From assembly GCA_963813535.1 (NCBI GenBank), contig CAWEZH010000002.1, positions 128,001 to 192,000 on the forward strand: DNA of 64,000 bases, given 5' to 3'. Below, one piece after another: positions 32,185 through 55,031 of the stretch. Both the position numbers and the translations under genes were made by a program. Position 1 is the stretch's first letter. Each line of letters starts with the position of its first letter. The notes below the pieces were generated by a model that saw only the letters and a list, made by a program, of their open reading frames with translations, had not been told where the DNA came from and ran no database searches. The stretch is from an uncultured Chloroflexia bacterium (GTDB lineage: Bacteria > Chloroflexota > Limnocylindria > Limnocylindrales > CSP1-4).

Positions 32185-33116
32185 ATGGCTCCGCAACAAC
32201 TCGTCTACGTCCACGGCGCCGGGACCGCAGAAGCCGCGCCGCTGCCCTCAAGCACGAGCTCGACATGTCGCTGTTCGGCAAGGACATGTCGACCACGCGA
32301 GTAGCGCACTACGCGAGTGTCCGCTGGCCACCGACCACCGGCGGCACGGGGGTCGCGCCCACGGCCTCCGGTCGCGCTCGACGCACCAAAGCGATCCGCC
32401 GAGCGACCGATCCGGCGCTCACCACCGGTGCAGCCGCCGACGAGATCGTGAACGCCACGCTGCGCGGCCCGTCCGTCGGCTTCGGCGCTGCCGCGCCGCC
32501 CAGCGCCCAGGAGATCGCGCAGGCTAAGAAGCTCGTGCAACAGCTCTACCGGCGCGCCGACCGTGTCGCCAGTCGCTCCGCGGCCCCGACCCCGGGACTG
32601 GCGCTCGGCGTGTCGTTCCCCGATCCGATCTTTCGATTCATCGTCGGCAAGTTCGCCAGCGACGTCATCGACTACCTCTATGGGCCGTTCAAGCACCAGA
32701 TGCAGGTGCCGGTGTTCGACGCGCTGCGAAAGAGCCCGCGACCAAAGGTCATCGTCGCCCACAGTCTCGGCACGATCATCCTGTACGACGTCCTGTCCGA
32801 TCCGGCACTCACTGGCCTCACCGACAACGTGCTCATCACCGCGGGCTGTCCGCTCGGCATCGGCAACGTCCAGAAGCGCCTGCGTAACGGGGCGGCACAA
32901 CCGCACCCGGTGCCAGTCGCGCTCAAGGCCTGGTCCAACTTCGCTGACCGCTGGGACCCCGTCGCCCTCGAGCAGACGCTTCGCGACGAATTCGAGCCTC
33001 CCAAGAACTTCGCGAAGGACGACCAGGTCAACAACCCGGCGCGGGACAACCACGATCTGCTGGGCTACCTCTCGGTCGCGATCGTGCGCGACGCGATCGT
33101 CGCGGCCGCCGGCTAG
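32185..33116 (+). CDS. alpha/beta hydrolase (apparent frameshift near 32230-32260)
   Basis: LVYVHGAG, IVAHSLGT nucleophile elbow, LITAGCPL, DPVA, NHDLLGYL. Confidence 0.8.
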
Positions 33117-33124
33117 AAATCACG

Positions 33125-34885
33125 ATGCGGATCCGCGCGCCGCTCATGATCCAGGACCCGGACATCGCGGTCACGGATATCGGCCGCCACGTCGAAGAGT
33201 GGCGCGGCATCGACGAGGATCATTACCTTGATGGGCCGGTGACGCCCCGGGTTGCCGTCGTAGACCTGGACCCGGACACGGAGGAGCTGGAGCCCGGCGC
33301 GGTATTCGTCCCGCCTCGGCGAAACCAGACGCTCGGCCGCTACCAGGTTCGCACCGACGATCTCTACGCACCCCATTTCATCCAGGTCAGCGTCTTCGCG
33401 ACGGTCCTTCGGACCATGTACATGTACGAGGAGAGCGACACGCTGGGCCGCAAGATCACCTGGGCGTTCGGCGGTCCGCAGCTCCTCGTCATCCCGCGGG
33501 CGGGTTGGTGGCCGAACGCCTACTACGAACGGCGCTCGCGAAGCCTGCAATTCTTCTCGTTCCGGGCCCGCGGCAAGCTCATCCACACCAGCCTCTCGCG
33601 CGACATCGTCGCCCACGAGACAGCCCACGCCCTGATCGATGGGATCGATCCGGACCTCTACGACGCACTCGATCCCCAGTCGCTCGCGCTGCACGAGGGC
33701 ATCGCCGATCTCACTGCCGTCCTGATCGCCTTCCGCAGCGGCAGGCTTCGAAAGGCGGTCCTCGACCAGACCAACGGCTCGATCGAGAGATCGACCCGAT
33801 TCAGCTCGATCGGCGAGGAGTTCGGGCGCGCCATCGACCCGAGCGGCGCGGTCGGCTATCTCCGCAACCTGCTCGACGACAGCAAGCTCGATCCCGACAG
33901 TGATCCGGGGGACGAGCCCGAGGAGCACGTCCTGAGCCAGGTGGTCACCGGCGCCCTCTACAGGCTCATGGTCGACCTCCACCGCGACTACAAGCAGCGC
34001 CTGGCGCAGCGGCGGGGAGAGTCGCAGTTCTCCGTATCGGGTCGTGCGCTGTTCGGTGCCTCAGAGCAGTTCAAGCGGATGATCCTGCGTGGACTCGACT
34101 ACCTGCCGCCTGGCGAGGTCACCTTCGCCGACTACGGCCGGGCGATCCTGGCAGCCGACCAGGCCTCGTTCCAGGACGACACGTGGCGCCGATACATCCG
34201 GAAGGAGTTCGTGCGGCGGGGCATCGTCAAGCGCGCGCGGCAGCTCGACGTCCAGACGAACGTCCCGAACGCAGCCCTCGCCGACATCGACCTGCAGGGC
34301 CTGGTCGACAGCGCGTGGTTGGCCTACACGTTTGCCGAGAAGAACCGCAAGCTGCTGCGGATCCCGAAGGACGCCCAGTTCGAGGTGATGCCGCGCATCA
34401 TCGTCAACAAGCGGTTCCTGCTCCCGGACCAGAACATCGATCAGGCGGCCGCCGTCCACGAGGACACATCCGCCGACGACGATGCCCGGATCGAACCGGC
34501 TGAGCCCGGCGCGGAGATCCCCCTGCCAGTCAAGGAGCTTCTGTTCAAGGTCCGATGGAGTGTCACGGAGGACAACCCGCCGGACCTCGGCATCGCTCCG
34601 AGGCGGCGCATCCAGACCGGAACGACCCTCGTCATCGACTGGGATCGGCGGCTCGTTCGATCACTCCTCGGCCCGTTGGACCTCGAAGCGAGGAAACCGG
34701 CGCGGGACACGATGCTGCGGCGGCTGATGGATCGCGGCCTCCTCCAAGTGACGAGACCGGACGACCCCGACGCGATCCAACAGACCCTCGGGACCGGTGT
34801 CGAGGCGGTGGTGACCGACCGCGTCCTGCGGGTAAGCAGCACGGCGCGGCTGCTGCATGTGGCGCGGGACGTCAGCTATGAGTGA
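33125..34885 (+). CDS. cytoplasmic gluzincin (M4/M36-like) zinc metalloprotease
   Basis: NAYY, DIVAHETAHA, ALHEGIAD, EEH; no signal peptide. Confidence 0.88.
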   Translation: MRIRAPLMIQDPDIAVTDIGRHVEEWRGIDEDHYLDGPVTPRVAVVDLDPDTEELEPGAVFVPPRRNQTLGRYQVRTDDLYAPHFIQVSVFATVLRTMYMYEESDTLGRKITWAFGGPQLLVIPRAGWWPNAYYERRSRSLQFFSFRARGKLIHTSLSRDIVAHETAHALIDGIDPDLYDALDPQSLALHEGIADLTAVLIAFRSGRLRKAVLDQTNGSIERSTRFSSIGEEFGRAIDPSGAVGYLRNLLDDSKLDPDSDPGDEPEEHVLSQVVTGALYRLMVDLHRDYKQRLAQRRGESQFSVSGRALFGASEQFKRMILRGLDYLPPGEVTFADYGRAILAADQASFQDDTWRRYIRKEFVRRGIVKRARQLDVQTNVPNAALADIDLQGLVDSAWLAYTFAEKNRKLLRIPKDAQFEVMPRIIVNKRFLLPDQNIDQAAAVHEDTSADDDARIEPAEPGAEIPLPVKELLFKVRWSVTEDNPPDLGIAPRRRIQTGTTLVIDWDRRLVRSLLGPLDLEARKPARDTMLRRLMDRGLLQVTRPDDPDAIQQTLGTGVEAVVTDRVLRVSSTARLLHVARDVSYE

Positions 34886-36080
34886 TCTCGTCGTCCGCGT
34901 CTACAACGTTCGCTTCGGTGACGCCATCCTCGTGTCCATCCCGGAGAAAGCGGGCGGGCACGATGTCGAGCGCACGATCCTCTTCGACTTCGGCAACGCG
35001 CTGAAGAAGGCTGGCGGGGTCGATGCGGTCTTCGAGCCCGTCATCGACGACCTCAAGGCCAGGCTCGGCGGGAAGCCCCTCGACCTCTACGTGATGACCC
35101 ACGAGCACCTGGACCACGTTCAGGGCCTCTTCTACGCCAAGGAGGAGCTCAAGAAGTCCATCAAGGCGAAGCAGGTCTGGTTGACCGGGTCGGCGGCGCC
35201 GACCTACTACGACACGCACACCAAGGCGAAGAAGCGGAAGAAGGCGGCGCTCGCGGCGCAGCGGGCGACGACCGCCCGGCTCCGGACGCTCTCGCGGCTT
35301 TCACCGTTCGCTGCGATGCTCCTGGCGAACAACGACGTGCGGACGACGGCGAAGTGCATCGACTTCCTACGGAACGGGCTGGCCAAGCCCGCCGACGTGC
35401 ACTACGTCGACCGGACGACCGATCTGAGCACGCTGCAGCCGGCGAAGGCCGCCAAGGTAACGCTCTGGGCCCCGGAGGAGGACACAGCCGACTACTACGG
35501 CAAGTTCGAGGCCTTGGCCTCAAGCCTGCGGATCGGGGATTCCACCGACTTCGATGACCTCGATCTGGGGCTCCGGGACGTCAAGGAGCTGGAGCTCCCG
35601 CAGCCGCCGCGCGGGGTCGATGCCGGATCGTTCTACAACCTGCTCGACGTCCGCCATTCGAACTCGGCATCGAACCTTCTGAACATCGACCAGGCGTCCA
35701 ACAACACCTCCATCGTGACGCTCATCGAGTGGAAGGGTTGGAAGCTGTTGTTCACCGGTGACGCCGAGAAGCGCAGCTGGCGGCAGATGGACAAGCTCGG
35801 GCTCGTCCAGCCGGTCCACTTCCTGAAGGTCAGCCACCACGGCAGCCATACCGGCATGCCACCGGGCGAGATCCTGGACAAGCTCCTCCCCATGTCGGCG
35901 CCGGCCGGCACTGGGCGGCCACGGGCGGCAGTGTCGACGTTCCCCGGCAACTACGACTCCGTGCCGAACGAGAGGACGCTGATCGAGCTGCGGAAGCGCA
36001 CGGATCTGAAGTCGACGCTCGACCTCACCCAGAACGAAGTGTTCGTGGAGTTCAAGTTCCCGTCGACCGGCCCGCAATAG
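34878..36080 (+). CDS. MBL-fold metallo-hydrolase (ComEC/Rec2-like)
   Basis: YNVRFGDA, DFG, THEHLDH, NNTS, FTGDAE, KVSHHGS; overlaps the gluzincin stop. Confidence 0.9.
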   Translation: MSDLVVRVYNVRFGDAILVSIPEKAGGHDVERTILFDFGNALKKAGGVDAVFEPVIDDLKARLGGKPLDLYVMTHEHLDHVQGLFYAKEELKKSIKAKQVWLTGSAAPTYYDTHTKAKKRKKAALAAQRATTARLRTLSRLSPFAAMLLANNDVRTTAKCIDFLRNGLAKPADVHYVDRTTDLSTLQPAKAAKVTLWAPEEDTADYYGKFEALASSLRIGDSTDFDDLDLGLRDVKELELPQPPRGVDAGSFYNLLDVRHSNSASNLLNIDQASNNTSIVTLIEWKGWKLLFTGDAEKRSWRQMDKLGLVQPVHFLKVSHHGSHTGMPPGEILDKLLPMSAPAGTGRPRAAVSTFPGNYDSVPNERTLIELRKRTDLKSTLDLTQNEVFVEFKFPSTGPQ

Positions 36081-39093: not shown

Positions 39094-39095
39094 CC

Positions 39096-42000
39096 ATGCC
39101 CGCTGCACCGCTTCCCCGCTATGGACTGCGCGGGCGGGTGGTCACGATGAACGCAGTCCGCGACGTCGTCGCGGACGGCATCGTGTGGGTCGCCGACGGC
39201 TCGATCAGCGACGTGACACCGGCGAACCAGACGCCGGCCGCCCACGCCGGGTCTCCGGTCGTCGCCACGGCCGGCACGATCTACCCGGGCATGATCGAGC
39301 TCCACAACCACCTCGCCTACAACACGCTGCCGTTGTTCAGGATCCCGCGGCTCTACACGAAGCGAGAGGAGTGGCAGGGTACCCGCGGGTACCGACGGTA
39401 TGTCAGCGGCCCCGCCGGGGTCGTCGCGTCGCTGCCGGACTTGATCCGGGCGACGATCCGCTACGTCGAGTGCAAGAGCCTGATCGCGGGCACGACGACA
39501 TCCCAGGGGCTGACCCTGCGCGCGGCCCCGATCAAGCACCTCTACAAGGGCATCGTCCGCAATGCCGAGCAACCGGACGCGGCCGGCCTGGACGCGGCGC
39601 GACCCAAGATCGGCGACGTGACCCCGGAGGGCCGTGAGTCGTTCCGCAAGTCGCTGGCTGGCAAGGGTGCCCGGATCGTCCACCTGGCCGAGGGGCTTCC
39701 GACCTCGAAGGCCCACGACCACTTCACCGACCTCCAGGCGCCCAACGGCACGTGGGCGATCGGGCCGAAGTTCGTCGGCATCCATTCGACGGCTCTCACT
39801 CCGTCCGACCTCGCCATCGTCGACCAGCTGGGCGGATCGATCGTCTGGTCGCCGTTCAGCAATCTCGCCCTGTATGGCGGGACGACCGACGCCAAGACCG
39901 CCATGGATCTCGGGATCAAGGTCGCCCTCGGCTCTGATTGGTCGCCGACCGCGAGCAAGAACCTGCTTCATGAGCTCAAGGTCGCGCGCATCTGGAGTGA
40001 CGATCAGCAGCTCGGCTTCACGGATCGCCAGCTCATCGAGATGGTGACCGTGACGCCCGCGGAGATCCTCGGCTGGCACGGTCGTCTGGGCTCGCTCGAG
40101 CCTGGCAAGCTCGCCGACATCACGGTCGTTTCCGGCAAGACGGGCGAGCCGTATCGCCATCTCGTCGACGCGACCGAGTCGGACATCCGCGTCGTCGTCA
40201 TCGGTGGGATCGCCCGCTACGGGACGCCCGCGATGCTGGCGAGACTCAGCCCTGTCGATGAGCAGGCCGACGTCGCCGGCAAGCCTCGGGCGTTCCATCT
40301 CGACGTGCACGATCCCGATCCGGTCCTGGGTCCCATGGGACTCACCGACGCGACCGCGACCCTAGCCGATGCGCTCGCGCACATGCCCGAGCGCGCCGCG
40401 GCCATCGGGTCCGTCGAGCTCGGTGTCGTTGCCGCCCAGGCCGTGGCCGGCGCGGACGCGGACGAGCGCTGGTTCCTGGAACTCGACCAGCCACCCATCG
40501 CCGGCGTCTCGGCGACCCTCTTCGACGGCATCGCCCCGGCATTGCTGGACGTCGTGATCGGCGCCGAGAGCTTCGCGTCGATCGCCATTGCCCTCAAGCT
40601 CGATCCCCTAGCGACCGAAGGCGACGACGCGTTCTTCGACATGCTGGCCAACCTCGAGAACCTCCCGGCAGTCCTGCGGGACACGCTGCCGGGCCGCTAC
40701 GGCGAGGTGCCGCGGGCTCCCACAGAGGGGGTCGGGCTCGAGGACGATGACCTGGCGATCGCACCTCTACCGCTGTCGGAGTTGCTCGAGCGTGCGGGCG
40801 ATCTGACCCTCGCCGATCGACGGCTCATCGTCCAGCAAGCGATGGTCCTGCTCGACCAGGCCTACGTCCATCTGCCGATGAAACGGGCGAGGTACGCGGC
40901 TGATCCGCTGCAGCGCCTGCGACTGATGGCGCACCGGCTTGAAGCTCTGGCGCCGACCGACGAGCTCGGCCCCGAGAGCCTGTTCCATGAGGAGCTCATC
41001 GAGATCTTCACCGCCCTTCGTGACCTGCACACCCACTACGTCCCGCCCGAGCCGTACCGGTCGCACACGGTGTTCCTGCCGTTCCTCGTCGAAGAATGCA
41101 CGCGGGCGGGTCGGCTGCAGTACCTCGTGTCCAAGGTCGCCCACGGAGCCGAGCTCGACCCGTCATTCGCACCGGGGGTGGAGGTGACCCACTGGAACGG
41201 AACGCCGATCCGACGGGCCATCGAGCGCAATGCCGAGAATCAGAGCGGAGGCAACCGGGCGGCTCGGATGGCACGCGGGCTCGACGCGCTGACGATCCGC
41301 ACGCTCGGCCGCACAGCGCCACCGGATGAGGACTGGGTCGACGTGGCCTACCTGACCCCAGAGGGTGGCGAGGGACTGGTTCGCACCCGCTGGAGCACCT
41401 ATCAGCCGCTCGAGCCGTCGCCCTTCGGGGATCTCGAGCAGGCATTCGCCAGTGCGGTCCCGGTCAGGTCCGGCAATCGGGGCCGGCTCGGCGCGCTCGG
41501 TGTCGACGACCAGACCGCGACCGTCAACCTGGTCCGGCGCGACCTCTACGCTCGAGGCTGGCAGCGGACGGCAGCCTGCCGGGTCCGACGAACTGGTCAC
41601 CGAGCTGCCCGGGATCCTGCGCGCAAGGATCAGGGGGACGAGTGCGGGGGACGTCCTGCACATGCGGATCTTCACGTTCGTGGTCCCGGATCCCGGGGCG
41701 TTCGTCCAGGAGTTCGTGCGCCTCGTGCAACTCAGACCCAGCGTCGGCTTGATCGTCGACGTCAGAGGCAACGGCGGCGGCGACATCCGCGCTGCGGAGC
41801 GCCTGCTGCAGGTCATGACGCCCCATCCGATCGGACCCGAACCGACGCAGTTCATCGTCAGCCCATTGGTCCGTCGCCTGTGCATGGCCAACCAGGGTGG
41901 CCCGATCGACCTCACGTCCTGGGCGCCCTCGGTCGTCGATGCGGTGGAGACCGGTGCCACCTTCTCGACTGGGTTTCCGATCACGTCGGCAGTGGACGTG

Positions 42001-42648
42001 AATGACCTCGGCCAGGGCTACTACGGTCCGGTCGTCCTGATCACGGATGCCCGCTGCTACAGCGCCACGGACATCTTCGCCGCCGGATTCCAGGACCACG
42101 ACATCGGGCGGATCGTCGGGGTCGCCGAGCGTACAGGTGCCGGCGGAGCGAACGTGTGGACGCACCCTCTGCTCCGGGCGCTGCTACCCGACCAGGACAA
42201 TCCGCTCAAGGAGCTTCCGAGACAGGCATCCTTCCGCGTGGCGGTACGCCGCACGACGCGCGTGGGGTCGCATGCCAGCGAGCTCCTCGAGGACCTGGGT
42301 GTCTTCGCTGACACGGTGCATGCCATCACGGACGCCGATCTGCTCGAGGACAATCGGGACCTGATCGAAGCCGCCGTTGCCGCGATGCAGGGGCGCGCGA
42401 CGAGGCGACTGGTGGCCGACGTGTCGCCGGCGGGCGATGGCGTGACGATCGACGTGGCCACGACCAACCTGGACCGGGTCGATGCCTATCTCGACGGTCG
42501 CCCCGTTGCTTCCGAAGACGTGCAGGACGATGAGTGCACGTTCGTCCTTCCGCACGCGATGATCAGCAACGGCGGGGAGGTGCGGCTGGAAGGGTTCCAA
42601 GGTGGCACGCTGAGCGCCGCGCGGCGACTCATGATCCCGATCGGATGA
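39096..42648 (+). CDS. amidohydrolase fused to S41 peptidase (apparent frameshift near 41560)
   Basis: PGMIELHNH, HLAEG, GIHS, WSPFSN, ALGSDW, GKLAD; then LRDLHT, DVRGNGGG, YSATDIF, TGAGGAN. Confidence 0.8.
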
Positions 42649-42683: not shown

Positions 42684-43022
42684 TCAGCCCTCGGGTTCGG
42701 CCTCTTCGTCGCCCCACGATCTTCCCTCGCCGATCCGCGTCCGGCGCGATCGCTGGAATGCCGCGGACTGGCGCAGGTTCCATGCCTGCACGCCCATTCG
42801 GGCGACCTCGTCAAGACCGCCCAGGTCGTCCGGAACGGGGCCTTTGAACATCCGCACCGTCTCGGGCGTTTCGGCCGACCCGGCGGTCCCGCTTTCCGCG
42901 AGCTCGACGACCAGTGCCCGATCGCCGTATGCCTGGACCGGGCGACCGCCAGCGGCGGCGAGCCACGCCCGAACATCGTCGGGAGAAGCGGCGGGGGCCA
43001 GGACCACGAAGTACTCGGCCAT
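42684..43022 (-). CDS. small protein homologous to the N-terminal prodomain of the adjacent metalloprotease
   Basis: VQAYGDRALVVE...GLDE..RMGVQAWNLRQS...R..EGRSW aligns by eye with 43068 VLHRYGSRVLIGE...GLSE..AVGLAAWDLRVS...R..DGQRW. Confidence 0.75.
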   Translation of the reverse strand: MAEYFVVLAPAASPDDVRAWLAAAGGRPVQAYGDRALVVELAESGTAGSAETPETVRMFKGPVPDDLGGLDEVARMGVQAWNLRQSAAFQRSRRTRIGEGRSWGDEEAEPEG

Positions 43023-43067
43023 CGATCACACGTTCTGCCGGACCACGGGACGCTCGGAGGATAGGAC

Positions 43068-44527
43068 ATGGCGAAGCGTGACGAGATCGCCAAGCAGGGA
43101 CTCATCATCCTCGACGCCAAGGGCGTCGCCGACATCCGCGGGACGGCGGGGCGGCTCGAGGACGTCGGTGTGAGCGTCCTCCACCGCTACGGTTCGCGGG
43201 TCCTCATCGGTGAGGTTCCACCAGCGGGTGGCCGGGGCGTGGCTGCCGAGCGGGGCGTGCGCTCGTTCCACGCGGGCGCCGTGCGTGCCAAGCCTCGTGG
43301 CCTGAGCGAGGCGGAGGCCGTCGGGCTGGCGGCGTGGGATCTGCGTGTTTCGCGGCGATACGCAACCGCCAAGGCGAAGCGGCCACTCGACGGTCAGCGC
43401 TGGGACGCCGCGGGCGTCACCCCACTCATCCCGCCAGACGGCCCGCTCATGACCCATGTCGACGATGAGGGGCCGGCCCGCGCGTTCCGCGCGGTGGGCG
43501 ACGAGACCAGCGCCTATCTCATCGGCGCCGTCGCCGTGGGAGCTCATCCTCGTCGAGGGTCCCACAGCGGACCTGCAGTTCAGCGAGGCCGAGCGCACGA
43601 AGGTCGTCGCCGAGGTCCAGGAGGGATTGACCTGGCTCGGCACCCGGGAACCCAAGGCCGGTGTCTCCTTTGCCTACGACATCCGGATCGTGCAGGTGGA
43701 TCGAGCCCCGAACCCGGCGCTGAGCGGCTACGAGCCGCTCGAATCGCACTGGCGCGACCCGGCAATGGCGAAGCTCGGGTTCGCCCCGAACTTCGGGGGC
43801 GTCAAGGAGTACGTCAAGGCCATCCGCGCCAACCTCGCCACGAAGTGGGCCTACGTCGCGTACTTCACGAAGTACCCGGTCCAGCACTTCGCCTATGCCT
43901 CCAAGCCGCGCCTGGTCATGCACTACGCCAACGACGGCTGGGGGCCCGACAACATCGACCGCGTCTTCACGCACGAGACCGGCCACATCTTCGGCTGCCC
44001 GGACGAGTACTCGGCAAGCAACTGCTCGTGCACCACGAAGGCGGGCTATCTGCGTGAGGTCAACGGCAACTGCCAGAACTGTGCGACGTCCTTCACGCCG
44101 TGCCTCATGGCGGGGAACACCTGGGAAATGTGCGCCTTCACGCCTGCCCACCTTGGCTGGCGCGACACCGATGGTGATGGCGCGCTGGACCCGGTCGATC
44201 CGGTCGGGAACCCGAACCCCCTGATCGATCTGGGCGGGTTCTGTTCGCGGTTCCCGTTCATCTGCCGGCTGGTCGGCCTCGGCGCCACAGCCGGCGCTGT
44301 GGCCGGCGACGATCCGGGCTGGCGGTCCGGCGTCACCGGTGCGATCCCCGCCGAGCCGCGGGGCGAGGCGGTCCCGGTCGAGTTGCTCCGCCAGGTCCTG
44401 ACCGCGGATGAGATGGCGCGCGTGGAGGCCGCGGTCCGTGCCGAGGAGGATCTGCTACCTCGAGGCCCTCGAGCGCAAGCTTCGGACCGCAGCGGACCAG
44501 ATCGCCCGCGAACGAGCCAGTCGCTGA
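43068..44527 (+). CDS. metzincin-like zinc metalloprotease with prodomain (apparent frameshifts near 43540 and 44455)
   Basis: HETGHIFGCPDEY zinc motif, Cys-rich segment, CLM Met-turn; no signal peptide; TGATG overlap with the next gene. Confidence 0.8.
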
Positions 44528-45024
44528 TGGATACCGCGGAGATCGAGCAAAAGGTCCTGGCGACGTCGGCGAGTGGTAATGACGCTCAGCTCGGCGGACC
44601 GGTCCGCGTCCTCGACACGGCCGAGGGCGCCGACGGTGGCTCGACGTACCAGGTGTCGGCGTCCCTGCTCGTACCGATCGACGAGGACGATCCGGACCTG
44701 ACCGGGGTGTCCATCGCGGTCCCTGTGACGGCCACCGTCGAGATCGACGACGACGGGGCGATCGTCGGGATCGATGTGCCGGTCGACGCGGCCGCCCAGC
44801 GCGAGGCGAGGTCGTTCACTCGCAACCTGATCGCCCGTGGGGCTGTCAGCGGGCTGGCGGCCAGCGGACCCGTGCGACGCGGTCCTGGGCTCGCCACCCG
44901 CCCGACGCACGAACTGACAGTCGACGAATTCGGTCGGCGGGTGATCCGCCGGACGGGATTTACCGCGACTAGCGCGCCGGCCATGCCGGAAGACACGCGC
45001 GCCCACGATGGAGACAGCCCGTAG
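44527..45024 (+). CDS. small protein homologous to the C-terminal domain of the downstream gluzincin
   Basis: EARSFTRNLIARGAV...PTHELTVDEFGRRVIRRTGF versus QARAFARSLVANGDV...PSHEIRLVGGEPTLVRVGF. Confidence 0.7.
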   Translation: MDTAEIEQKVLATSASGNDAQLGGPVRVLDTAEGADGGSTYQVSASLLVPIDEDDPDLTGVSIAVPVTATVEIDDDGAIVGIDVPVDAAAQREARSFTRNLIARGAVSGLAASGPVRRGPGLATRPTHELTVDEFGRRVIRRTGFTATSAPAMPEDTRAHDGDSP

Positions 45025-45040
45025 CGGCAAGGAGCGTCCC

Positions 45041-46531
45041 ATGGCGACCATCACGTACGTCCCGAACGACCCATTGGCGAGTGGCGGACCACCCACCAGA
45101 TCGACGAGGGCCAGCAACTACCCACGCGGTGACATCGCCAAGTTCGATATCCAGCCGACGGCGGTCGCCGGCAAGTTCGACCCGCACACGCCGGAGTTCC
45201 AGTACTGGCAGGCCAAGCTTGGGCTGATCGCCGGGCTGCGTGCCTGGCGCCAGATCGATGGCCGCTTCATGCGACGCTGGTTCGGGGACCAGAACCAGCT
45301 AGCCGTGCGCACTGACGCCGGCGACGACCTGAACGCGTTCTACGATCGCGACAGCCTGCAGTTCTTCTCGCACACGTTCGGCGGGGTGACAGTCAACTCC
45401 GCCGAGAGCGTGGACGTCGTGACGCATGAAGAAGGTCATGCCTTCCTCGACGCCATCCGGCCGGACTTCTTCGATGTCCCGTTCATCGAAGTCGGAGCGC
45501 TCCACGAGGCGTTCGGCGACTGCATGGCGATCGTCACCGCGCTCGAGGACCGCGCCATCCGGGACGCCGTCCTGGCGTCCACCCCGGACCTCGCGGCCAA
45601 CCACTTCGTGGAAAGCCTGGCCGAGGCGCTCGGCGACGCGATCGCGCGGGAGTTCGGAGCGGGCAGCGTCGACGTCGGAGCGCTCCGCCATGCCCTTAAC
45701 ACGTTCCAGTACGCTGATCCGACCTCACTGCCACCGGATGCCCCCGCGGACCAGCTCTCCGGTGAGGTCCACAGCTTCGCCCGGGTGTTCAGTGGCGCTT
45801 TCTACGACGTCATCCGGAACGTCTACATCGGCGGCACGCGGAAGGATTCGCTCGCGCTGCGGAAAGCCTCCCGGACGGCGGGCAAGCTGCTAGTGGCAGC
45901 CATCCGGATCGTGCCCGCCACGCCGAGCACGTTCCGCGGCGTCGGCCAGCGGATGCTCCAGGTCGACGTGTCGAAGAATCGCGGAGCCAATACGGCCGCG
46001 ATCACAGAAGCGTTCGCGGGTCATGGGATGTCACTGCCCGCCCCGGCCACGTCCCTGCCGGTCCCCCTGCCCAGGCAGACCCGCGCCGGGGCGGCTCCGG
46101 AGCTACGCCGGCGGCTCGCGGTCCCCCCAGGCACCAGGATCGAGATCACACCCGTCGATTCCGACCTGCATGGCGAGATCGCCCACGTCAGCGCGTACCG
46201 GCCGTTGCCCCTCGATGGCGCCGGGCTTCAGGGCGTCCGGATCATGGTGCCGGGCATCGCGCGTGTGGCCACCACCCGCCGCGGCCGGTCGATCACCGGC
46301 GTCCTGGGTGAGGTCACCTCGTCCGAGGGTGATGCGGCGGTGCAGGCCCGTGCCTTCGCGCGCTCGCTGGTCGCGAACGGCGACGTGCGCACCGCCCCAC
46401 GGGCGGCCCGACGGCTCGCCGCCGCTCCGCAGCCGCCGACGGCTCGGGTGCCGCACAAGCCCAGTCACGAGATCCGACTCGTCGGCGGCGAGCCGACGCT
46501 CGTCCGGGTCGGCTTCTCCCACCGGCACTGA
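45041..46531 (+). CDS. cytoplasmic gluzincin (M36/M4-like) zinc metalloprotease
   Basis: LNAFY, DVVTHEEGHA, ALHEAFGD, GEVH; no signal peptide. Confidence 0.88.
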   Translation: MATITYVPNDPLASGGPPTRSTRASNYPRGDIAKFDIQPTAVAGKFDPHTPEFQYWQAKLGLIAGLRAWRQIDGRFMRRWFGDQNQLAVRTDAGDDLNAFYDRDSLQFFSHTFGGVTVNSAESVDVVTHEEGHAFLDAIRPDFFDVPFIEVGALHEAFGDCMAIVTALEDRAIRDAVLASTPDLAANHFVESLAEALGDAIAREFGAGSVDVGALRHALNTFQYADPTSLPPDAPADQLSGEVHSFARVFSGAFYDVIRNVYIGGTRKDSLALRKASRTAGKLLVAAIRIVPATPSTFRGVGQRMLQVDVSKNRGANTAAITEAFAGHGMSLPAPATSLPVPLPRQTRAGAAPELRRRLAVPPGTRIEITPVDSDLHGEIAHVSAYRPLPLDGAGLQGVRIMVPGIARVATTRRGRSITGVLGEVTSSEGDAAVQARAFARSLVANGDVRTAPRAARRLAAAPQPPTARVPHKPSHEIRLVGGEPTLVRVGFSHRH

Positions 46532-46534
46532 CCG

Positions 46535-48902
46535 TCAACCGGCCTCCGGCTCCAGCCGCATGGCCGGGATGGCCGAAGAACTGGTAGGCCATGTAGGTCG
46601 ACGACGTCGTCTCGGGGGTGTCGCGGAATGCGGCGCGCTCCGTGCGCATGATCTCGGCGGGTGCCTCGCCACGCATCGCCCGCTCGTAGAAGCGGATGGC
46701 GATGTCTCGAGCGAGTCGGTCGTCGATCGACCACAGCGGTGCGATGACGCCTGCTGCGCCGGCGAACAGGAAGGCCGCCGCCAGACCGGCATGATCGCCG
46801 AGGAGTTGGCTGCCGCGGCCGACCTGGCATGCGTTCAGGAAGACGAACGGATGGCCGCGCAGCGGGATCCCCTTGACGGCCAGGGGATCGAGGGCAGAGC
46901 CGTCGACGAGGATCAGGCCATCCCTGGCCTCCTCGGCCTCGTAGGTGCCGTGCACGGCGAAGTGGATGACATCGGCGGCCGGACGCCCCCTCAGGAGGTC
47001 GAGGATGCCGCCGATCGTGGCATCCACCGGCATCCCCTCGTAGATGCGCACGATGTCAGCGGCCTCGGCCTCCGCCTCGGCAAGGCGCTGCCAGCCTGGC
47101 AGCTCGTAGACGCCCGATACGGCGGCGACACCCTGGACGGCCACGCTCATGGGCGGCGGGAGGGCGGGCCGCCGCTGGCCGAGGACCCAGCGCCCGACCG
47201 TCGCCTGGGCGGCAAGGAAGGGCGGGAGGTCGGGATCGAGCGGCGGATCCACGACGGCGAGCTCCCACGGGACGTACGGCTCGGCCGAGAGGAACAGGAT
47301 GGACGGCGGCCGGGCGCCATTCCGTGTCGCGATCTTTGACAAGGCGTTCCAGAACTCGATCGGCAGCTGCTCGGCGATGGTCAGCCCGATCCCGCGCAGG
47401 GCGACGAACTGCGTCGGACGACCCTCCACCTCCTGCATCTCGTCGACGATCCGACGGAGGTCCGCCGCAGGATCGCCGCCGATATCGATACGGATGGGGG
47501 CGTCCGGCATGTCGATCGTCGGATCGGCCGCGAGCAACTGGACGAGGAGGCCACCGCTCGCCTCGGATTCCGCACGCTCGATCCGTACGGTCAGGTCGGG
47601 CGCCACCTGGCCAGCCGGCAATGACAGGTCGACGCCGGGGGCAGGTGGCTGGGCCGGAGCCGACGCCAGGAGATCGGCCGACCGGACCAGGGCGACCGAA
47701 CGCACGGCGAGACCGATCGGATTGCCGTCGATCGAGTACATCGCGCGGATCGAGGTCGACATGACCGGTGCAACCTGGGCATCCGGCACGAGCTGGATCG
47801 TCACGGACGGGTAGGGGGCCTCCGCTGTGACCGGCAGGTCGATCCGCCAGGACGCGCCGGCGTCCGCGAGCCGGAGGCCGTCGGCAACGAGTTGGATGGT
47901 CATCGTGTACGCGCCGACGCTCGATGGCGGTCGGTGGAGCGCCTCCCCGACGACGCGTGCGTCCGGGCGGTCGGCGAGCCCCACGACGAGATCGAACGGC
48001 TGCTCGGCGACGACGGCATCCGGACAGGACAGCCGGGCGTAGGTCGTCCGCGGCGGATCAGCCTCGCTCCCGATCGTCGCGCCGCCGGCGCCGATCGTGG
48101 CACCGGGCCCGACGGCTTCGGGCTCAGGCACGGTCGTCGGCCCGGCGGGTCCACCGGGGCTTGGCGGGGGGCTTGGGGGGCGTGCGGCGGGCGGACCGGC
48201 TGCCGCTTACGGCCGCGCTCGGATGCCGCCTGGGTCAGGCCGCCGACGACCTGGTTGAGCACCCCGCTGATCGCCCCCGGGATCGCCGTCCAGAGGACTG
48301 CCGAGGTCGGCGTGATCCCCGTGATGCCGGCCTGCTGGGCGAACAGCAGGAGGCCGATCCCTATCACCACGCCACCCACGACGGCGAGCACACCGTTGCG
48401 GCGCCCCACAGTCAGGAGCGCACGGAGCGCCATGAGGACGCCGACCACGATGATCCCGATCGCCACGAATCCGGCCGGGGTCCCGAGCGGCGAGCGGCCG
48501 GTCACGTTGACCCAGCCGTGGACCTGGCAGACATCGGTCGCCGCGGTGACTTCGTACAGACCCGACCCGAACCGCGCGTAGTCGGAGACGGGAAGCGTCT
48601 CCGGACCATTCGGTGGTGGGGGCGATCGGCTCGTCGGCGATCGTCCAGGTGGTCGGCCAGACGCTGATCGCGATGGTCGCCCGGGTCACCGGTTCGAGGG
48701 ACTGGCCGAACACCCGTGCCACGGCATCGGCGTCGATCGGGATCGCCCGATCCGGACTGTCGGCATCGCCGAGGGAGTGCCGGTCGATGAAGACGACACA
48801 CTGTCCGATCGTCTGGGCACTGACCGGCGCGGAGAGGATCATGACGATGGCCACGCCGAGCAGGAGAGCGGCGGCGGACCGCACGCGGGGACGGGGCCGC
48901 AT
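46535..48902 (-). CDS. probable single membrane-anchored CHAT (caspase-like) protein: signal peptide, ectodomain, 3 TM, Pro linker, beta-sandwich, CHAT (several apparent frameshifts)
   Basis: CHAT motifs VPWEL, IHFAVHG, FLNACQVG, APLWSIDD, AYQFFGHP; upstream ORFs 48902-48207 and 48505-47900 give signal and TM segments running into a Pro-rich linker with no clear intergenic gap. Confidence 0.7.
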
Positions 48903-48918
48903 CAGCTAGGCATCGGCG

Positions 48919-51270
48919 TCATCGCCAGCTCGGGTCGATGCTGTCTCCCCCTAAGGACTTTGTTAGGTCTTCTTCCTTCCCGGTGGCCAGAACACGCACC
49001 AGGATGTGCCACTCGTCTCCGACGCGGCGGTAGAAGGCGATCCGGTCACCTTCGGGCGAATAGACGGGACCGCCCTCGTCGGCCGAATCGTCGGTGATTC
49101 GGCTCTCCTCCCTCGTTTCGACGTCGATCGACCAGATGTCCCGTCTCGCGCGAGGCTCGTTGCGCGTGAACACGAGTCGCCCGCCGTCGGGGTGCCATCT
49201 CGGGTTGCGGTCGACGGTACCGCCGGACGTCAAAGGCTCGGGATCGCGACCTGGTACCCAGATGTAGATCGATAAGACATCGTCATTGCTATCGCGGTTC
49301 GACGTGAACGCCATCCGCGCGCTATCCGGGTCCCAAGCCGGTGAGCTGTCATCGGCGCCTCGTTGCCCCACGACCGGTTTCGGTAGACCAGCCCTGAGCG
49401 AGGAAACGCGCCAGATGTCGTTCAGCTGCTTGTTCGTCTCGTCGCGGTCGCTGTTGAAGTAGATGAACTTGTTCCGTGCGAAGTCCGGGACGCGGTCGTC
49501 CGCAGGGCCACTCGTCATCGGGGTCTGATTCCCACCATCCTTGTCCATGGTGTAGATGTCACCGGTGCCGTTGTTGATCCGCGTGAATGCGATGTGCGTC
49601 CCATCGGGCGACCACCTCGGCCACCGGTCCGGAACGCTGTTATCGGTGAGCCGGTCCGGCTTGAGGGTGTCCGGATCGATGAGGTAGATCTCGGAGTCCT
49701 CGCCGTCGGTACCGTCCGGGTCGAACTCGAACAGGATCCCCGTTCCGCCCGTCGGTGGAGCGATGCTCGCTGACGCGGAAGCGTCGCTTGGGGGACCACC
49801 CGTCGGTTGGGTATCCGATGCCGAGAAGGAGGCGGATGCAGTGCCGGAGCCTGGGCTCGCGCTTGCCCCGCCCCCGCCTCCGAAGATGTTGACGGCCAGG
49901 AGGAGCACAAGCAGGACGGCTCCGCCGCCGGCCGCGAGGATCGCGATCGGCCGCCAGGGCGGCGGCGGCGGTGGCGGCACCGGCGTGGGACGCTCAGGTT
50001 CCGGTGCTTCAGGCTTCGGAGGTTTGAATAGCTCCTCGAGTTCATCCTGGCTGAGCTCGGGGACTGTCTCCGGTGGCTCCGGTTCGGGAGCTTCCGGCTC
50101 GGGCGGCGCCGGTGGTACGGCGGTACCAGTATCGGCGGCGGGGGCGCCTCGACCACTGGGGCCGCCGCGACGTTGAACAGCACGCCATCCGGTGTCTGGA
50201 GGTACAGGACCGGCGTGCCCCATTCCAGCGTGTCCTCGAAGGCGGTGGCGAGACCCTTCCGTGCCTCGGTGAGCGCCGTGTCGACCGGGATGCCCCGCGC
50301 GACCGCGCCATAGAACGATCGGCTCAGTTCGATCGCGGCCTCATCGGTGATCTCGTACTGCATCGCCACGACGGCCGGAGTGCCCTTGCGGACGAGCGTG
50401 CCCGCCGTGCTCGAGAACACGTCCGTGACGTCGCTTCGACCGGTGTCGCACGCGTTGAGGACAGCGAGGCGAAGCGGTTCGTGGTCCCCGAGGATGCGTC
50501 CGAAACTCGTGGCCCGCTTGTAGTCGGCCTTGCCGTCGGGGCGGGCGAAGGCAACGATGCCCTCCTTGCGGTTCTCGTCGAAACCGCCGTGGCCGATGAA
50601 GTGGAGGATGTGCCAGGGGCCCTCCCACAATGCCTCCTGGAAGTCCTGCCACGTCTGCCCTGGGATCCAGGTGAGCTCGATCAGGCCCTTGGCCTGTATC
50701 GACTCCATCGCGGCGGTGAGACGGGTTCGCTCTCGCTCCACATCCAGCCCGTCGAGGTCCGAAGGACTGACCGCGACCGCCAGGATGCGGATCGGCGGCG
50801 TCACGAGGAGCGGCTCCATGCTCGACGGCAATCGGGATGTAGCGGACCAGCGGCGAACCGGTCGAGAGCGTGACGAAATCGCCGCGAACCGGGTCGAAGA
50901 GGTACTCCCACGGGAGCGCCGCGAGTTCCGCGTCGTCGCACCGGAACTTGATCCGCATGCCGGACTGCTGGTGCTTTGCCTCCTGGCGGCTCGCCTCGTA
51001 GCGCGACAGGACGTCGCCAGAGAACAGTGCGGTCCACAGTTCCTGGCCGAACTCCTGGACCGTGCGGCTCTCCGGTGATGAGATCCGGCGGCGCGTCCCG
51101 CTCGAGCGGAGGAGCGCGATCTGGAGGGCCTGCAGCCGGTTGGTGAGCGTCGGCTGGTCGAACGGGAAGCGCATCGATGACGTCGCCTCGCCAGCCGGCG
51201 ACCGCACCTTGACGGTGTACGACCCCGCTTCGCCGCCAGTGACATCGATCTCGAAATCGAGGTACTGCAC
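48919..51270 (-). CDS. CHAT (caspase-like) domain, Pro linker, TM, TolB-like beta-propeller (apparent frameshifts near 50825 and 50140)
   Basis: YLDFEI..., LPWEYL, LHFIGHG, VLNACDTG, VVAMQY, WGTPVLY; then TM and WSPDG/YSPEG PD40 repeats. Confidence 0.82.
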
Positions 51271-51370
51271 TGGTCGCCTTCCCCGCGCGCCCGATGTCAA
51301 GGCTACCCCGGGTCGCAAGCAGATCCGTTACAGGGGCGGTGCTATCGTGGCCACTCAGCGAGGTGGAGGC

Positions 51371-53377
51371 ATGCCTGCGGACGGATCCGGCTCCACGTCC
51401 TTCGTCGTCATCCGGACCGATTGGTCGGTCCTGACGGCCCTCCGGGCGCTCGACGCGACTGACGCGACCCACGTGATCATCGCGCACCACGGCGATCGTG
51501 GCGACGAATACCACCTGTTCACGGCCGACGACATCTTCGCCGAGCTCCAGACTCATCCGACCGAGGCCAACCTCACCTCAGTGCTGCCTTTGGCCGAGTG
51601 GCCGCCGACGCCGACGATCGCGCCGGGCGATGCGATCGGCGATCGGACGATGGCGGTCGTCCTCGATCGTGGCCGCGCGGTCGGTTTCATCGATCGCAAC
51701 GCCCCGAGCGTTCCAGGCCCGACGGCAGAGACCGTCCAGCCGGGTGATGCCGGCGGCCCCGGTGGGTGGACTGGCGAGGAGGTCGTCGAGCCGGTGCGAC
51801 GTGGCGGTGGGCACCGCGCGAAGCCGCCCGCATCGGCCGGCGATGGCGAACCTGTCGCTGCGAATGGCGGACCCGACGCCGAGGATGGCGGGACCGAGCG
51901 ATCGCTCGAGGCGGAATTTCCTGACTCGGTCGTGGTCGACACGGTGGAGTGGCTGCTGGTCTCGATCGTGAACGCGAAGCCGACAGCGTCGGGTCTCGCC
52001 ATCGAGGTCGCGGCGGGCGAATCGATCGACGTCCTGGTCCAACCGCGGCGCGGGTTCAGCGTGGAGGGTGACGCTCAGGGCACGCTCAAGGTGCCGGCCT
52101 CCGGCGAGAGCCTGCCGCTCCAGTTCAAGGTCAAGGCCCTCGACGAGGGAAAGGGCCTGATCCGCGTCCTGGCCTTCCACCTCGGCGAGCCGCTCGGCGT
52201 CATCACCCTCGAGCCGACGGTGAAGGCCGCGTCCAGGAGCCGGGCTCGCGGACGGACGACCTCGGCGCCTGCAGCGAGGAAGGGCCAGGCGCTGACGGCG
52301 CCGAGCCCGCAGGTCCCGGACATGTCGTTGTTCATCGAGGAGCGCGAGGCCGGCGGAGCCCTCGAGTTCGTCATCCGCCTGACCGCCACGGACCCGGCAC
52401 TCGACCTGAACCTTCGTCCGTTCGGGCCGTTCCGTCTCGAGGTCGAACCCGCCGAGTTCTTCGGGACGTTCTTCCAGGAGATCGACGAGCTGCCCCTGGC
52501 CACGAAGGAACAGCGCGAGGTCGCCGAGCGACGGTTGGCGGCCAAGGGTGCGTACCTGACCGAGTCCCTGATGCCCCCGGAACTGCGTGAGGCGCTCTGG
52601 CTGGTTCGCGATCGGATCGCCTCGGTCATCATCCAGTCCGAGGAGCCCTGGATCCCGTGGGAGCTCTGCCGCCTCATGGGCCGTGACGGCGATCGGGTGA
52701 TCGAGGGTCCGTTCCTGTGCGAAGCCTTCGCGGTCACGCGCTGGTTGCCCGGTGAGGGGTTCAAGCGCCCCCTCCGGCTCACCAACATGGCCCTGATCGT
52801 CCCGGCCGATTCCGGCCTGCCGCTCGCGCCCGAGGAACGCGACTTCGTCCTGTCGCTGGCCGGGGACGGTCGTGCCGTCACGGCGATCGATCCGAAGTTC
52901 GCCGACGTACAGGACGCGTTCGCGGCCGGCGTCTACGACGGCTGGCACTTCACCGGGCACGGCGCAGCGCGCGATTCGAACCCGGATCGTTCGTCGATCA
53001 TCCTGAGCGGCGAGGAGTCGTTCACGCCCGAGGACCTCAGTGGCCAAGCCGCGAACCTGGGCATCCCGCATCCGCTGATCTTCATCAACGCCTGCCAGGT
53101 CGGCCGCGGCGGGATGGGCCTGACCGGTATCGGTGGCTGGGCGCGACGCTTCGTGCAGACCGGGGCCGGCGCGTTCATCGGGGCGTACTGGTCGGTCTAT
53201 GACGTGTCGGCCTTCGCCTTCGCCAAGGAGGTCTATGCGCGGCTCCTGGACGGGATGCCGATCGGTGATGCGGTCCGCGAGGCACGCGCCAAGGTCCGTG
53301 AGGATGGTGACCCGACGTGGCTCGCCTACACCGTGTTTGCCGATCCGCTGGCCACCGTCGAGTCCGGACCGAGCTAG
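51371..53377 (+). CDS. soluble CHAT (caspase-like) protease with CBS-like N-terminus and beta-sandwich domain
   Basis: IPWEL, WHFTGHG, FINACQVG, FIGAYW, WLAYTVFADP; GGAGG RBS. Confidence 0.88.
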   Translation: MPADGSGSTSFVVIRTDWSVLTALRALDATDATHVIIAHHGDRGDEYHLFTADDIFAELQTHPTEANLTSVLPLAEWPPTPTIAPGDAIGDRTMAVVLDRGRAVGFIDRNAPSVPGPTAETVQPGDAGGPGGWTGEEVVEPVRRGGGHRAKPPASAGDGEPVAANGGPDAEDGGTERSLEAEFPDSVVVDTVEWLLVSIVNAKPTASGLAIEVAAGESIDVLVQPRRGFSVEGDAQGTLKVPASGESLPLQFKVKALDEGKGLIRVLAFHLGEPLGVITLEPTVKAASRSRARGRTTSAPAARKGQALTAPSPQVPDMSLFIEEREAGGALEFVIRLTATDPALDLNLRPFGPFRLEVEPAEFFGTFFQEIDELPLATKEQREVAERRLAAKGAYLTESLMPPELREALWLVRDRIASVIIQSEEPWIPWELCRLMGRDGDRVIEGPFLCEAFAVTRWLPGEGFKRPLRLTNMALIVPADSGLPLAPEERDFVLSLAGDGRAVTAIDPKFADVQDAFAAGVYDGWHFTGHGAARDSNPDRSSIILSGEESFTPEDLSGQAANLGIPHPLIFINACQVGRGGMGLTGIGGWARRFVQTGAGAFIGAYWSVYDVSAFAFAKEVYARLLDGMPIGDAVREARAKVREDGDPTWLAYTVFADPLATVESGPS

Positions 53378-53398
53378 GTCCGGAGCTGGCCCGACGCG

Positions 53399-54202
53399 TC
53401 AGGCGGGCCGCCGGCGCTCCTGGAGGACGTGGAACGCGGCCATCGCGACCGTGAGGAAGATCAACCCGCCGATGTATGAGCTGACGGTCCGCCCGTTCAG
53501 TTCTCCATAGAAGAGGGCGGCCGTGACCAGAAGGGCGACGCCGTTGACGATGAACAGCCGAGCCGCCGTGCGGATCTCGTCCCAGTCGCGAGCGAAGGCC
53601 ATGGTCCCGCACCAGACCGACCAGCCGAGGAACCACGCGGCGACGATGCGCGCGTCCAATGGGTTGAGCTCCCAAGCCCAACGGTGCGCTGCGAACTCGG
53701 GGTTGATCAGGAGGAGCAGGCCATGCATGAGCAGCAGCCCCGTCACGAGGACGAGGAACCGCTTGAACCACAGGAGGATGGGGCCTCCGCTGACGGGGGC
53801 CTCGGCTCGCATGATCCCGCGCGGGATCAGGTAGATCATCACCACCGGCTCGAAGATGTAGAGGATCACCCAGATGTGGGCCGTCGGCGGCGTGAACTGT
53901 GACCAGGTGAATTCGTCGATGTGCCAGAACGTGGCGAGCAACAGCGTGCCGGTGAAGGCGAGGTTGCCCCACACGATCCAGCGGAGCCGGATCCAGTCCG
54001 CCTGGCGGGCGACATTGAGGAAGAACAGTGTCCGGAAGATGTAGCCCGCGCCGATGAAGGCTTGGGCGTAGCGCGGCTGGACGTCCCACGCAAAGTATTC
54101 GGGCACGAACTGGGGGAACACGAGCATCCACACGGCGAACCACGCGGCCGCGAGCGCGCCGAGAACGCCCCAGAGAACCTGTGAGCGAGGTGGCCAGCTC
54201 AT
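53399..54202 (-). CDS. multi-TM membrane protein with internal duplication
   Basis: About 8 hydrophobic segments; FAWDVQP..AQAFIGAGY repeated as WAWELNP..ARIVAAWF. Confidence 0.75.
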   Translation of the reverse strand: MSWPPRSQVLWGVLGALAAAWFAVWMLVFPQFVPEYFAWDVQPRYAQAFIGAGYIFRTLFFLNVARQADWIRLRWIVWGNLAFTGTLLLATFWHIDEFTWSQFTPPTAHIWVILYIFEPVVMIYLIPRGIMRAEAPVSGGPILLWFKRFLVLVTGLLLMHGLLLLINPEFAAHRWAWELNPLDARIVAAWFLGWSVWCGTMAFARDWDEIRTAARLFIVNGVALLVTAALFYGELNGRTVSSYIGGLIFLTVAMAAFHVLQERRRPA

Positions 54203-54209
54203 CGAGGCT

Positions 54210-55031
54210 TCAACGCTCGACATCGATCGTGAAGCTGGCCGTGTCGAACAGCCATTCCTTCGGGCGACCGAACAGCCCGGCCTCGCGAACCCAGCACGTG
54301 ATGCCGATCCGTAGTTGTTTCGTGGCCTTGGGCACGAGCAGTGTCTGGAGCAAGGCCTGGTGCCCGGCGATCTGCTGGTCCTGGGCGTAGAGGCTCCACT
54401 CGGCGCCGCCATAGCCGTCGCCGGGGCCGGAGATGACCTTGGGCACGGAGACGGTGAAGCTGATCGACAGCTTCGCGTTCTCATTGATGCTCGCGCCGAC
54501 CTTGGCCGCGGTCAGGGTCACGCCGGGCACGGTGCTGATCGCGGCCTGGAATTCCTTCGGCACCTCGAGCGATCCGTCGAGGCCGATGTCGACGCTCGCC
54601 TCGGCCCCGACTTTGGCGATGTCGAGCAGCTCGGTCGACGGTTGGACGTCCACGGTGTCGGCCTGGACGTCGAACAGCTCGACCTTGTAGCCCATCCCCC
54701 AGACCTTCGCTGGCTTGCGGCCGGGAGCCGGCTGCGCGGTCACCCCATGCGACAGCAGCACCGGGAACTTCCGCCCGAGTCCGGCCACGATCATCGGGTC
54801 GGGGGTCTTCTCGGCGAGCTTCCACAGGCGGCGCAGGTCGATCGCCCGCGGCGCCGGCATCGCCAGGCTGAACGGCGCGTTCGACGGTAGAGCACGCGTC
54901 GCCTCGTCACCGCCCCGCCGGACCGGACCCGCCGCCTTCAGGGCGTCGGCGGCCATCTCCTTGAGCACGCCGTCCTCGACGTCTTGTGGGTTGCCTTGCG
55001 CCTCGAGGGTCCGCGTTCCCCGCTCCGCCAT
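54210..55031 (-). CDS. beta-rich hypothetical protein with amphipathic beta-hairpin
   Basis: GGAGGAG RBS; KVGAEASVDIGLDGSLEV...KVGASINENAKLSISFTV; N-terminal GPVRRGG. Confidence 0.72.
   Translation of the reverse strand: MAERGTRTLEAQGNPQDVEDGVLKEMAADALKAAGPVRRGGDEATRALPSNAPFSLAMPAPRAIDLRRLWKLAEKTPDPMIVAGLGRKFPVLLSHGVTAQPAPGRKPAKVWGMGYKVELFDVQADTVDVQPSTELLDIAKVGAEASVDIGLDGSLEVPKEFQAAISTVPGVTLTAAKVGASINENAKLSISFTVSVPKVISGPGDGYGGAEWSLYAQDQQIAGHQALLQTLLVPKATKQLRIGITCWVREAGLFGRPKEWLFDTASFTIDVER

Follow-up and report, generated by a model that had tools for sequence, protein, structure and literature searches.

PVRRG in three proteins of a protease island

The window analyzed here is a stretch of 64,000 nucleotides (GC content, 68.7%) from an uncultured Chloroflexia bacterium, whose genome assembly comprises 3.28 Mb in 3 contigs and is 93% complete. 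From 32.2 to 55.1 kb of the window lies a protease island with genes for an alpha/beta hydrolase, two M36-like proteases, an MBL-fold protein, a UDG-like protein, an amidohydrolase-S41 fusion, an M12-like protease, and three CHAT proteins. Three proteins of the island belong to unrelated families and share the pentapeptide PVRRG: a caspase-like protease (CHAT3), a pore-toxin-shaped beta-hairpin protein (BH), and a small, inhibitor-shaped stand-alone domain (SAD). This motif, which we read as a candidate recognition and cleavage site for the CHAT proteases of the island, is the subject of this report. The carriers, their copies of the motif, and related sites are as follows.

44527..45024, plus strand: SAD, 165 residues; no Pfam match
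44866-44886, plus strand: GPVRRGP in the SAD loop; candidate P1, R118
51371..53377, plus strand: CHAT3; TCAD7-like domain, linker, DUF7363, CHAT protease
51788..51811, plus strand: EPVRRGGG in the N-terminal linker of CHAT3; R143-G144, numbering from 51374
52238..52261, plus strand: SRARGRTT in the DUF7363-CHAT linker of CHAT3; second, weaker candidate site
54210..55031, minus strand: BH, 273 residues; alpha-hemolysin/leukocidin-like in its modeled fold; candidate pro-pore effector
54909-54929, minus strand: GPVRRGG in the BH loop following the N-terminal helix; candidate P1, R39
54885..54905, minus strand: EATRA, where the older xxRG site of BH is present in degenerate form; close relatives read ATRG
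41460-41474, plus strand: PVRSG in the amidohydrolase-S41 protein

Coding frames were taken from our own dicodon gene caller, which gave 3,248 segments with 996,217 amino acids, 7,364 of them in the island. The three PVRRG copies and PVRSG all fall in frames called coding, and the places given for these four copies in a preliminary description were correct; a further PVRRG at 15050 falls in a frame not called coding. The copies read CCC GTG CGA CGC GGT, CCG GTG CGA CGT GGC, and CCG GTC CGG CGG GGC. A DNA-level repeat was ruled out because third codon positions vary between copies and between orthologs, including AGG for CGN; these differences and the homolog alignments described below bear out the earlier statement that conservation is at the protein level. 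PVRSG had been listed as a fourth copy and is indeed present, but only 1 of 3 orthologs keeps it, and it was dropped as a site. All 3 keep the neighboring GNRGRL (41472-41492).

The called proteome contains PVRRG five times, three times in the island and twice elsewhere, which places the island ∼200-fold above background. Because PVRRG was picked after the fact, we ran a look-elsewhere control that accepted any 5-mer present in at least three non-paralogous genes with no more than two copies elsewhere. Such 5-mers turned up in 135 of the 2000 random gene sets and, by hand count, in 14 of 129 other genome windows. The excess over the proteome is only borderline after this correction; the single-genome count cannot carry the claim, and the case beyond chance rests on the conservation of Arg-Gly (R-G, or RG) in homologs.

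Conservation of Arg-Gly in homologous loops

In each of the three families the observed number of loops with RG was above that in every shuffle. For CHAT3, the best 120 of 218 matches yielded 105 rows (query included) with the N-terminal domain and 104 distinct linkers. RG was present in 93 of these linkers (shuffle mean, 47; maximum, 61) and GR in 18, and the usual context was P-[V/T/A]-[R/T/K/E]-R-G-G. R143 and G144 were each 90% conserved in a 64-row subset in which the remainder of the linker was 11% identical. The linker is 19 to 145 residues long among homologs, and this range and its composition suggest that it is flexible. At the second, weaker site of CHAT3, 52 of 113 distinct linkers had RG (shuffle mean, 16.7) and 37 had GR. 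The 62 BH matches gave 59 distinct loops, with RG in 54 (shuffle mean, 17; maximum, 26) and GR in 2; most of these relatives read DEERG, ERG, or ATRG. Among the 53 distinct loops from 59 SAD matches, 48 had RG (shuffle mean, 23; maximum, 35) and 2 had GR. There was no such excess in 268 linker-like segments from elsewhere in the proteome, 56 of which had RG versus a shuffle mean of 63.

The full pentapeptide is less widespread. Five orthologous islands keep it in BH (5/5), in CHAT3 (5/5), and in SAD (4/5, one copy being unreadable after a frameshift), with changes in the Arg codons. Over the wider alignments it occurs in only 8 of 59 BH loops, 21 of 104 CHAT3 linkers, and 30 of 53 SAD loops. 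Thus, of the conservation proposed in the preliminary description, R-G stands and PVRRG as a unit does not; we set the pentapeptide aside in favor of x-R-G, which is kept far more widely in all three families. The sites are conserved at the protein level, they lie in coil or in loops of variable length, and R-G outlasts its flanks. Judged from these alignments, the exposed loops have Arg-Gly as their conserved functional unit, with PVR as a lineage-specific local prefix.

Structure models of BH and SAD agreed with the homologs in placing the motif in exposed loops of unrelated proteins, as had been proposed. In the BH model (pLDDT 77), an N-terminal strand and helix are followed by a coil at residues 34 to 53 that holds the motif and then by a beta-sandwich; the long hairpin (stem region) is of low confidence, with pLDDT under 50. 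All 32 Foldseek rows listed were pores of the alpha-hemolysin/leukocidin family (best E, 1.5e-5; TM, about 0.3; identity, 7-14%). VIA-align placed gamma-hemolysin and NetF at the top (Z, 9.8 and 9.6, the former being a root mean square deviation of 5.2 over 170 residues), with generic beta-sandwich adhesins within 1 Z unit of them, and the nearest named Atlas cluster was leukocidin PF07968 at 0.88, which we take as a lead only. BH and 29 of its relatives matched no Pfam family, the PF07968 profile included, and a cluster look-up gave only "hypothetical protein." BH is like the alpha-hemolysin/leukocidin family in its modeled fold and differs from it in its low identity, in matching no Pfam family, in having no hydrophobic signal stretch, and in being encoded beside CHATs. 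No gasdermin was among the fold matches listed, and the candidate site of BH is N-terminal. The modeled fold suggests a pore function. Ahead of the motif BH has a self-contained N-terminal piece, which is the layout of a pro-peptide, and some homologs have tandem sites (four VTRGG in P0082 and four ERG in P0055).

SAD is a free paralog of the C-terminal domain of the M36-like protease encoded next door, and it adjoined an M36-like gene in all 13 genomes that gave a match and at the loci read. Its model (pLDDT 81) consists of a cystatin-like N-part, a helix, the RRG loop, and a terminal beta-hairpin; the motif is in coil (pLDDT 56) between the helix and the hairpin. Residues 1 to 88 are weakly cystatin-like (Z, 7.0; root mean square deviation, 2.5-2.9 over ∼70 residues), a likeness within the range of common arrangements, and Foldseek gave no match to SAD at an E value of 0.001 or better. 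A predicted complex of CHAT3 (residues 310-664) with SAD scored 0.12 against a mark of 0.32, which bears neither way.

The residues in front of R-G vary with the type of island. In a BH tree built from the core without the loop (58 rows, after 5 that were partial or aberrant had been dropped), PVRRG was limited to a single supported clade. This clade has 7 rows and lies within the xxRG relatives, and in it PVRRG is a second site placed ahead of the older xxRG. The PVR prefix appears, from this tree, to have been gained once by BH. Close relatives of the PVRRG-type BH that could be placed in genomes fall in CHAT3/SAD islands, and the sister protein P0007 (locus L027) has neither PVRRG nor a CHAT3 or SAD gene within 10 kb. 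Islands with a hydrolase-DUF7363-CHAT protein have acidic ERG or DRG in both the CHAT protein and BH at three loci (L021, L017/L018, and L051). SADs of the RR[GS] type adjoin CHAT3 in the clade of the present genome, in G174, and in G1022. Five genomes with a YG-type SAD have no CHAT3 orthologue, at a completeness of 59-88%; the M36-like protease of YG-type genomes has RTRG in its linker and C-terminal loop (L102-L106; GGRTRG twice in G205).

A more distant BH set consisted of 99 full-length relatives from 150 listed by a 50%-cluster search. Their loops were enriched for MG (17 versus 2.8 expected) and FG (21 versus 6.3), and RG was not significant (18 versus 12.6; P, 0.06). A single site type was found in 44 of 50 carriers. 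This pattern fits a switch of P1 with a fixed P1' Gly, as far as loop sequences can tell. The MG- and FG-type relatives had no plasmid match. BH and its relatives appear to form an undescribed hemolysin-fold family in which one N-terminal loop carries RG, MG, or FG.

Several further observations concern BH relatives. The family (204 representatives at an E value of 0.001 or better; relatives P0242-P0385) usually adjoins CHAT proteases. Among 400 genomes of the phylum there was one BH relative, in G515, directly upstream of a CHAT gene and with no clear loop site; a match in G030 (E, 9.8e-4) was spurious in context and was discarded. The G104 island (L021/L032) has a C14-like caspase (FADCC), a hydrolase-DUF7363-CHAT protein with many ERG sites, a BH with four ERG repeats, and two papain-like proteases, with a phage-tail-sheath-like gene nearby. 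At L057, a trypsin-like protease is fused to what by eye are apparent TIR/SLOG domains.

Proteases and neighboring genes of the island

The remaining features of the island that we could assign are listed here.

32241..33116, plus strand: alpha/beta hydrolase; TLRG at 32451-32474, kept in 2 of 3 orthologs
34878..36080, plus strand: MBL-fold protein; resembles defense MBLs (LmuA and Avs1a models, below the cut-off where a cut-off is given)
39093-42648, plus strand: amidohydrolase-S41 fusion; weakly matches the CPAF model (E, 3e-7)
45041..46531, plus strand: M36/M4-like metalloprotease with a SAD-like C-terminal domain; adjoins the SAD gene
46073-46096 and 46400-46423, plus strand: QTRAG and AARRL, weaker candidate sites in the M36-like protease; RTRG in more distant islands
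46560..48869, minus strand: CHAT1; membrane segments and CHAT; in frameshifted pieces here, a single open reading frame in G098; dyad FAVHG / LNACQ
48922..51273, minus strand: CHAT2; CHAT with a membrane segment and a PD40/TolB-like propeller; split by frameshifts; dyad FIGHG / LNACD

All three CHATs scored over the Pfam cut-off, each with His-Gly and Asn-Ala-Cys motifs and hence an intact dyad (in CHAT3, FTGHG at 52949-52963 and INACQ at 53084-53098); the TCAD7-like domain match of CHAT3 is below its cut-off. The three CHAT matches of the genome all fall in the island, and no C14 caspase (PF00656) was matched in this 93%-complete genome or in 5 relatives. CHAT3 has no membrane segment, carries the motif itself, and is the likeliest reader of the PVRRG form of the site. 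CHAT2, in which a membrane segment is combined with a TolB-like propeller, is a plausible sensor or initiator. A basic loop in the N-terminal domain of CHAT2 reads SSGTRRRIS, with no RG (51079-51105, minus strand); CHAT2-type proteins of hydrolase-CHAT islands read GRTRRG there (L018 10379-13273, L019 2561-4348, L053, and L058), and this loop is a possible self-processing site. We saw no CRISPR or CBASS gene and no SAVED domain in the island; none of 20 island-region proteins had a SAVED Pfam match, and a PADLOC match to SAVED_CHAT covers the CHAT part alone.

Several island genes are interrupted by apparent frameshifts, at about 41570, 43510, 44452, 48200, 50140, and 50835. We read these as probable assembly errors because the G098 ortholog is continuous at most of them.

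The linker ahead of the catalytic part of the amidohydrolase-S41 protein could be a self-processed inhibitory segment, as in CPAF. The protein encoded at 36135-37223 (plus strand) had no Pfam match; by eye, a Cys...His...Asp pattern is suggestive of a papain-like fold, and there are several RG dipeptides, ATRG among them. At 42687-43025 (minus strand) and 43068-43505 (plus strand), a second small stand-alone gene lies beside the M12-like protease. It resembles a free N-terminal pro-domain of that protease, both ending in AWxLR...R.GxxW, and the pairing is seen again in L059 and L102-L104.

A candidate Arg-Gly cascade and its alternatives

We think it probable, at roughly 0.7, that the PVRRG loops are this lineage's version of an x-R/G recognition and cleavage site for the island CHATs in a defense-like cascade. 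The membrane-bound CHAT2, with its propeller, would sense a signal and cut the linker of cytosolic CHAT3, unless CHAT3 cuts itself; either cut would release the TCAD7-like domain. Once active, CHAT would then remove the 39-residue N-terminal piece of BH, licensing the pore, and would cut, or be held by, the exposed SAD loop, which would serve as bait or brake. The core of the site would be P1-P1' (R-G), with P4-P2 tuning it to the local protease (PVR in this island; DEE or DDE where the island has a hydrolase-CHAT). The order from CHAT2 to CHAT3 to BH and SAD is suggested by analogy. That a single protease cuts all three carriers, as first proposed, we rate at a little under an even chance. 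More tentative still is the idea that the wiring can be read from sequence in full, such that one CHAT would read P-V-R-R/G, activate its own zymogen, disarm a cystatin-like bait, and license intracellular alpha-hemolysin-fold pores, with the pore family re-wirable (P1' Gly kept; P1 Arg, Met, or Phe and P4-P2 swapped to suit the protease island joined).

Parts of this logic are known. Cleavage after Arg by caspase-fold proteases, which the preliminary description gave as established, has a published R/G precedent in bacteria: a caspase-like protease makes two cuts in an alpha/beta hydrolase, putatively at Arg73 and Arg117, and the R/G is conserved in 161 homologs (Evans et al., PMC12642450). 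That LcCaspase-LcHydrolase module and the island are alike in having a caspase-fold protease and Arg-Gly loop sites in a latent partner; the module is activated by site-specific cutting, and the likeness of the island is read here from sequence. The island hydrolase would be of the same effector class as the published one, and hydrolase and MBL are two of the four effector classes described there. The module pairs a single protease with a single effector, whereas three CHATs are present in the island, with at least three proteins that bear the motif, the protease itself among them; hemolysin-fold and cystatin-like partners are not among the modules in the available part of that paper. As in the Runella system, in which a CHAT cuts a gasdermin at Leu/Gly, with P1' Gly required and P4-P2 contributing in vitro (Johnson et al., 10.1101/2021.06.07.447441), an X/Gly bond in an exposed loop would be cut by a CHAT to free a pore former. 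The Runella site has Leu at P1 and a C-terminal inhibitory piece, whereas the BH model is alpha-hemolysin-like, not gasdermin-like, and its piece is N-terminal. In Haliangium type III-B CRISPR, SAVED-CHAT, the initiator, activates a second caspase-fold protease, PCaspase, which cuts several neighbors, including the small inhibitor PCi (Steens et al., 10.1101/2023.06.23.546230). The candidate initiator of the island is instead a membrane CHAT with a propeller, and its conserved short site suggests selectivity, in contrast to the broad PCaspase. The type IV Thoeris caspase, also a bacterial caspase-fold protease, has a strict P1 Arg, but it is activated by a TIR signal, is promiscuous on host proteins, and has no dedicated substrates (Rousset et al., 10.1101/2024.10.24.620036).

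A number of results weigh against our reading. The single-genome count of PVRRG is not significant after correction, the five islands that keep it are close kin and not independent, and for the shared pentapeptide as a whole there is about one gain to count, together with one contrast, that with the ERG clade. The part of the G292 hydrolase-CHAT that was read has no ERG; G174 is mismatched, with PVTRG in CHAT3 versus PARRG in SAD; G910 (54% complete) has an RRS-type SAD and no CHAT3 was found there; and the YG-type genomes without CHAT3 are incomplete. Of the 99 distant BH relatives, 49 have none of RG, MG, and FG, and the 70 BH relatives that are most distant show no RG enrichment (7 versus 7.9). 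The BH of L028 keeps TRG with no CHAT within 10 kb, and at L057 (3409-9596) a distant relative lies upstream of the trypsin-like protease and not of a CHAT. The island has other protease types (M36-like, M12-like, S41, and papain-like), the P1 preference of its CHATs is not readable from sequence, and PMC12642450, in its available part, calls the R/G protease caspase-like and does not use the word CHAT.

The other proteases are the basis of one alternative, in which the loops are cut by other enzymes (M36-like, M12-like, S41, or papain-like) or by several different ones, such as one CHAT for each protein, and the identity of PVR is partly convergence or luck. Thermolysin-like enzymes cut before hydrophobic residues, which would suit the Val of P-V; at least four of the proteases encoded in the island are not CHATs, SAD is beside an M36-like gene in all genomes and loci covered, and in G104 BH adjoins genes for a C14-like caspase and papain-like enzymes. 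However, the invariant part of the site in CHAT3 and BH is R-G and not Val, the protease genes recognized beside BH in L017/L018, L019/L020, and L049-L056 are CHATs, and the RR[GS] form of SAD mostly tracks the presence of CHAT3, and we consider this explanation unlikely. It is about as improbable that a CHAT docks on the R-G loops through its active site or an exosite with no productive cutting, the loops being docking tags or pseudosubstrate brakes; in the latter form the CHAT3 linker would restrain its own enzyme and SAD would be a cystatin-like inhibitor. Conservation alone cannot separate binding from cutting, and the N-part of SAD does model as cystatin-like, but the pro-peptide layout of BH and the tandem repeats in P0082 and P0055, which suit redundant cut sites, argue for cutting, as do the published X/G sites, which are cut.

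Chance, GC-rich composition, and shared ancestry might together give the same pentapeptide in Pro/Arg/Gly-rich loops with no common function. Equally rare 5-mers were shared in the random gene sets of the look-elsewhere control, and PVRSG of the S41 protein is probably such a case. Against this stand the family-wide retention of R-G relative to randomized flanks, RG far above GR, the synonymous turnover of codons, and control linkers with no RG excess. Chance is largely refuted for R-G and possible for the PVR prefix; as an account of the whole pattern we give it very little weight.

The general frame of proteolytic conflict systems has been laid out by Kaur et al. (2020, 2021; PMC7159879, PMC8195603), and the word hemolysin is absent from the available text of both papers. 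In a literature search with subscription papers and supplements mostly outside its scope, neither this island nor TCAD7/DUF7363-CHAT linker motifs nor hemolysin-fold CHAT partners came up. The logic of R/G cleavage is thus already known; a multi-substrate island and a hemolysin-fold partner with a switchable site were not met in the literature searched.

To our knowledge, neither a substrate nor a specificity has been assigned to most CHAT proteases. For this island the sequence yields exact candidate bonds, after R39 of BH, R118 of SAD, and R143 of CHAT3. If our reading is true, the published R/G logic of one protease and one effector would extend to a multi-substrate cascade, the hemolysin-fold pore family would be a protease-gated counterpart of the bacterial gasdermins, and loop motifs could be used to pair orphan effectors with their proteases.

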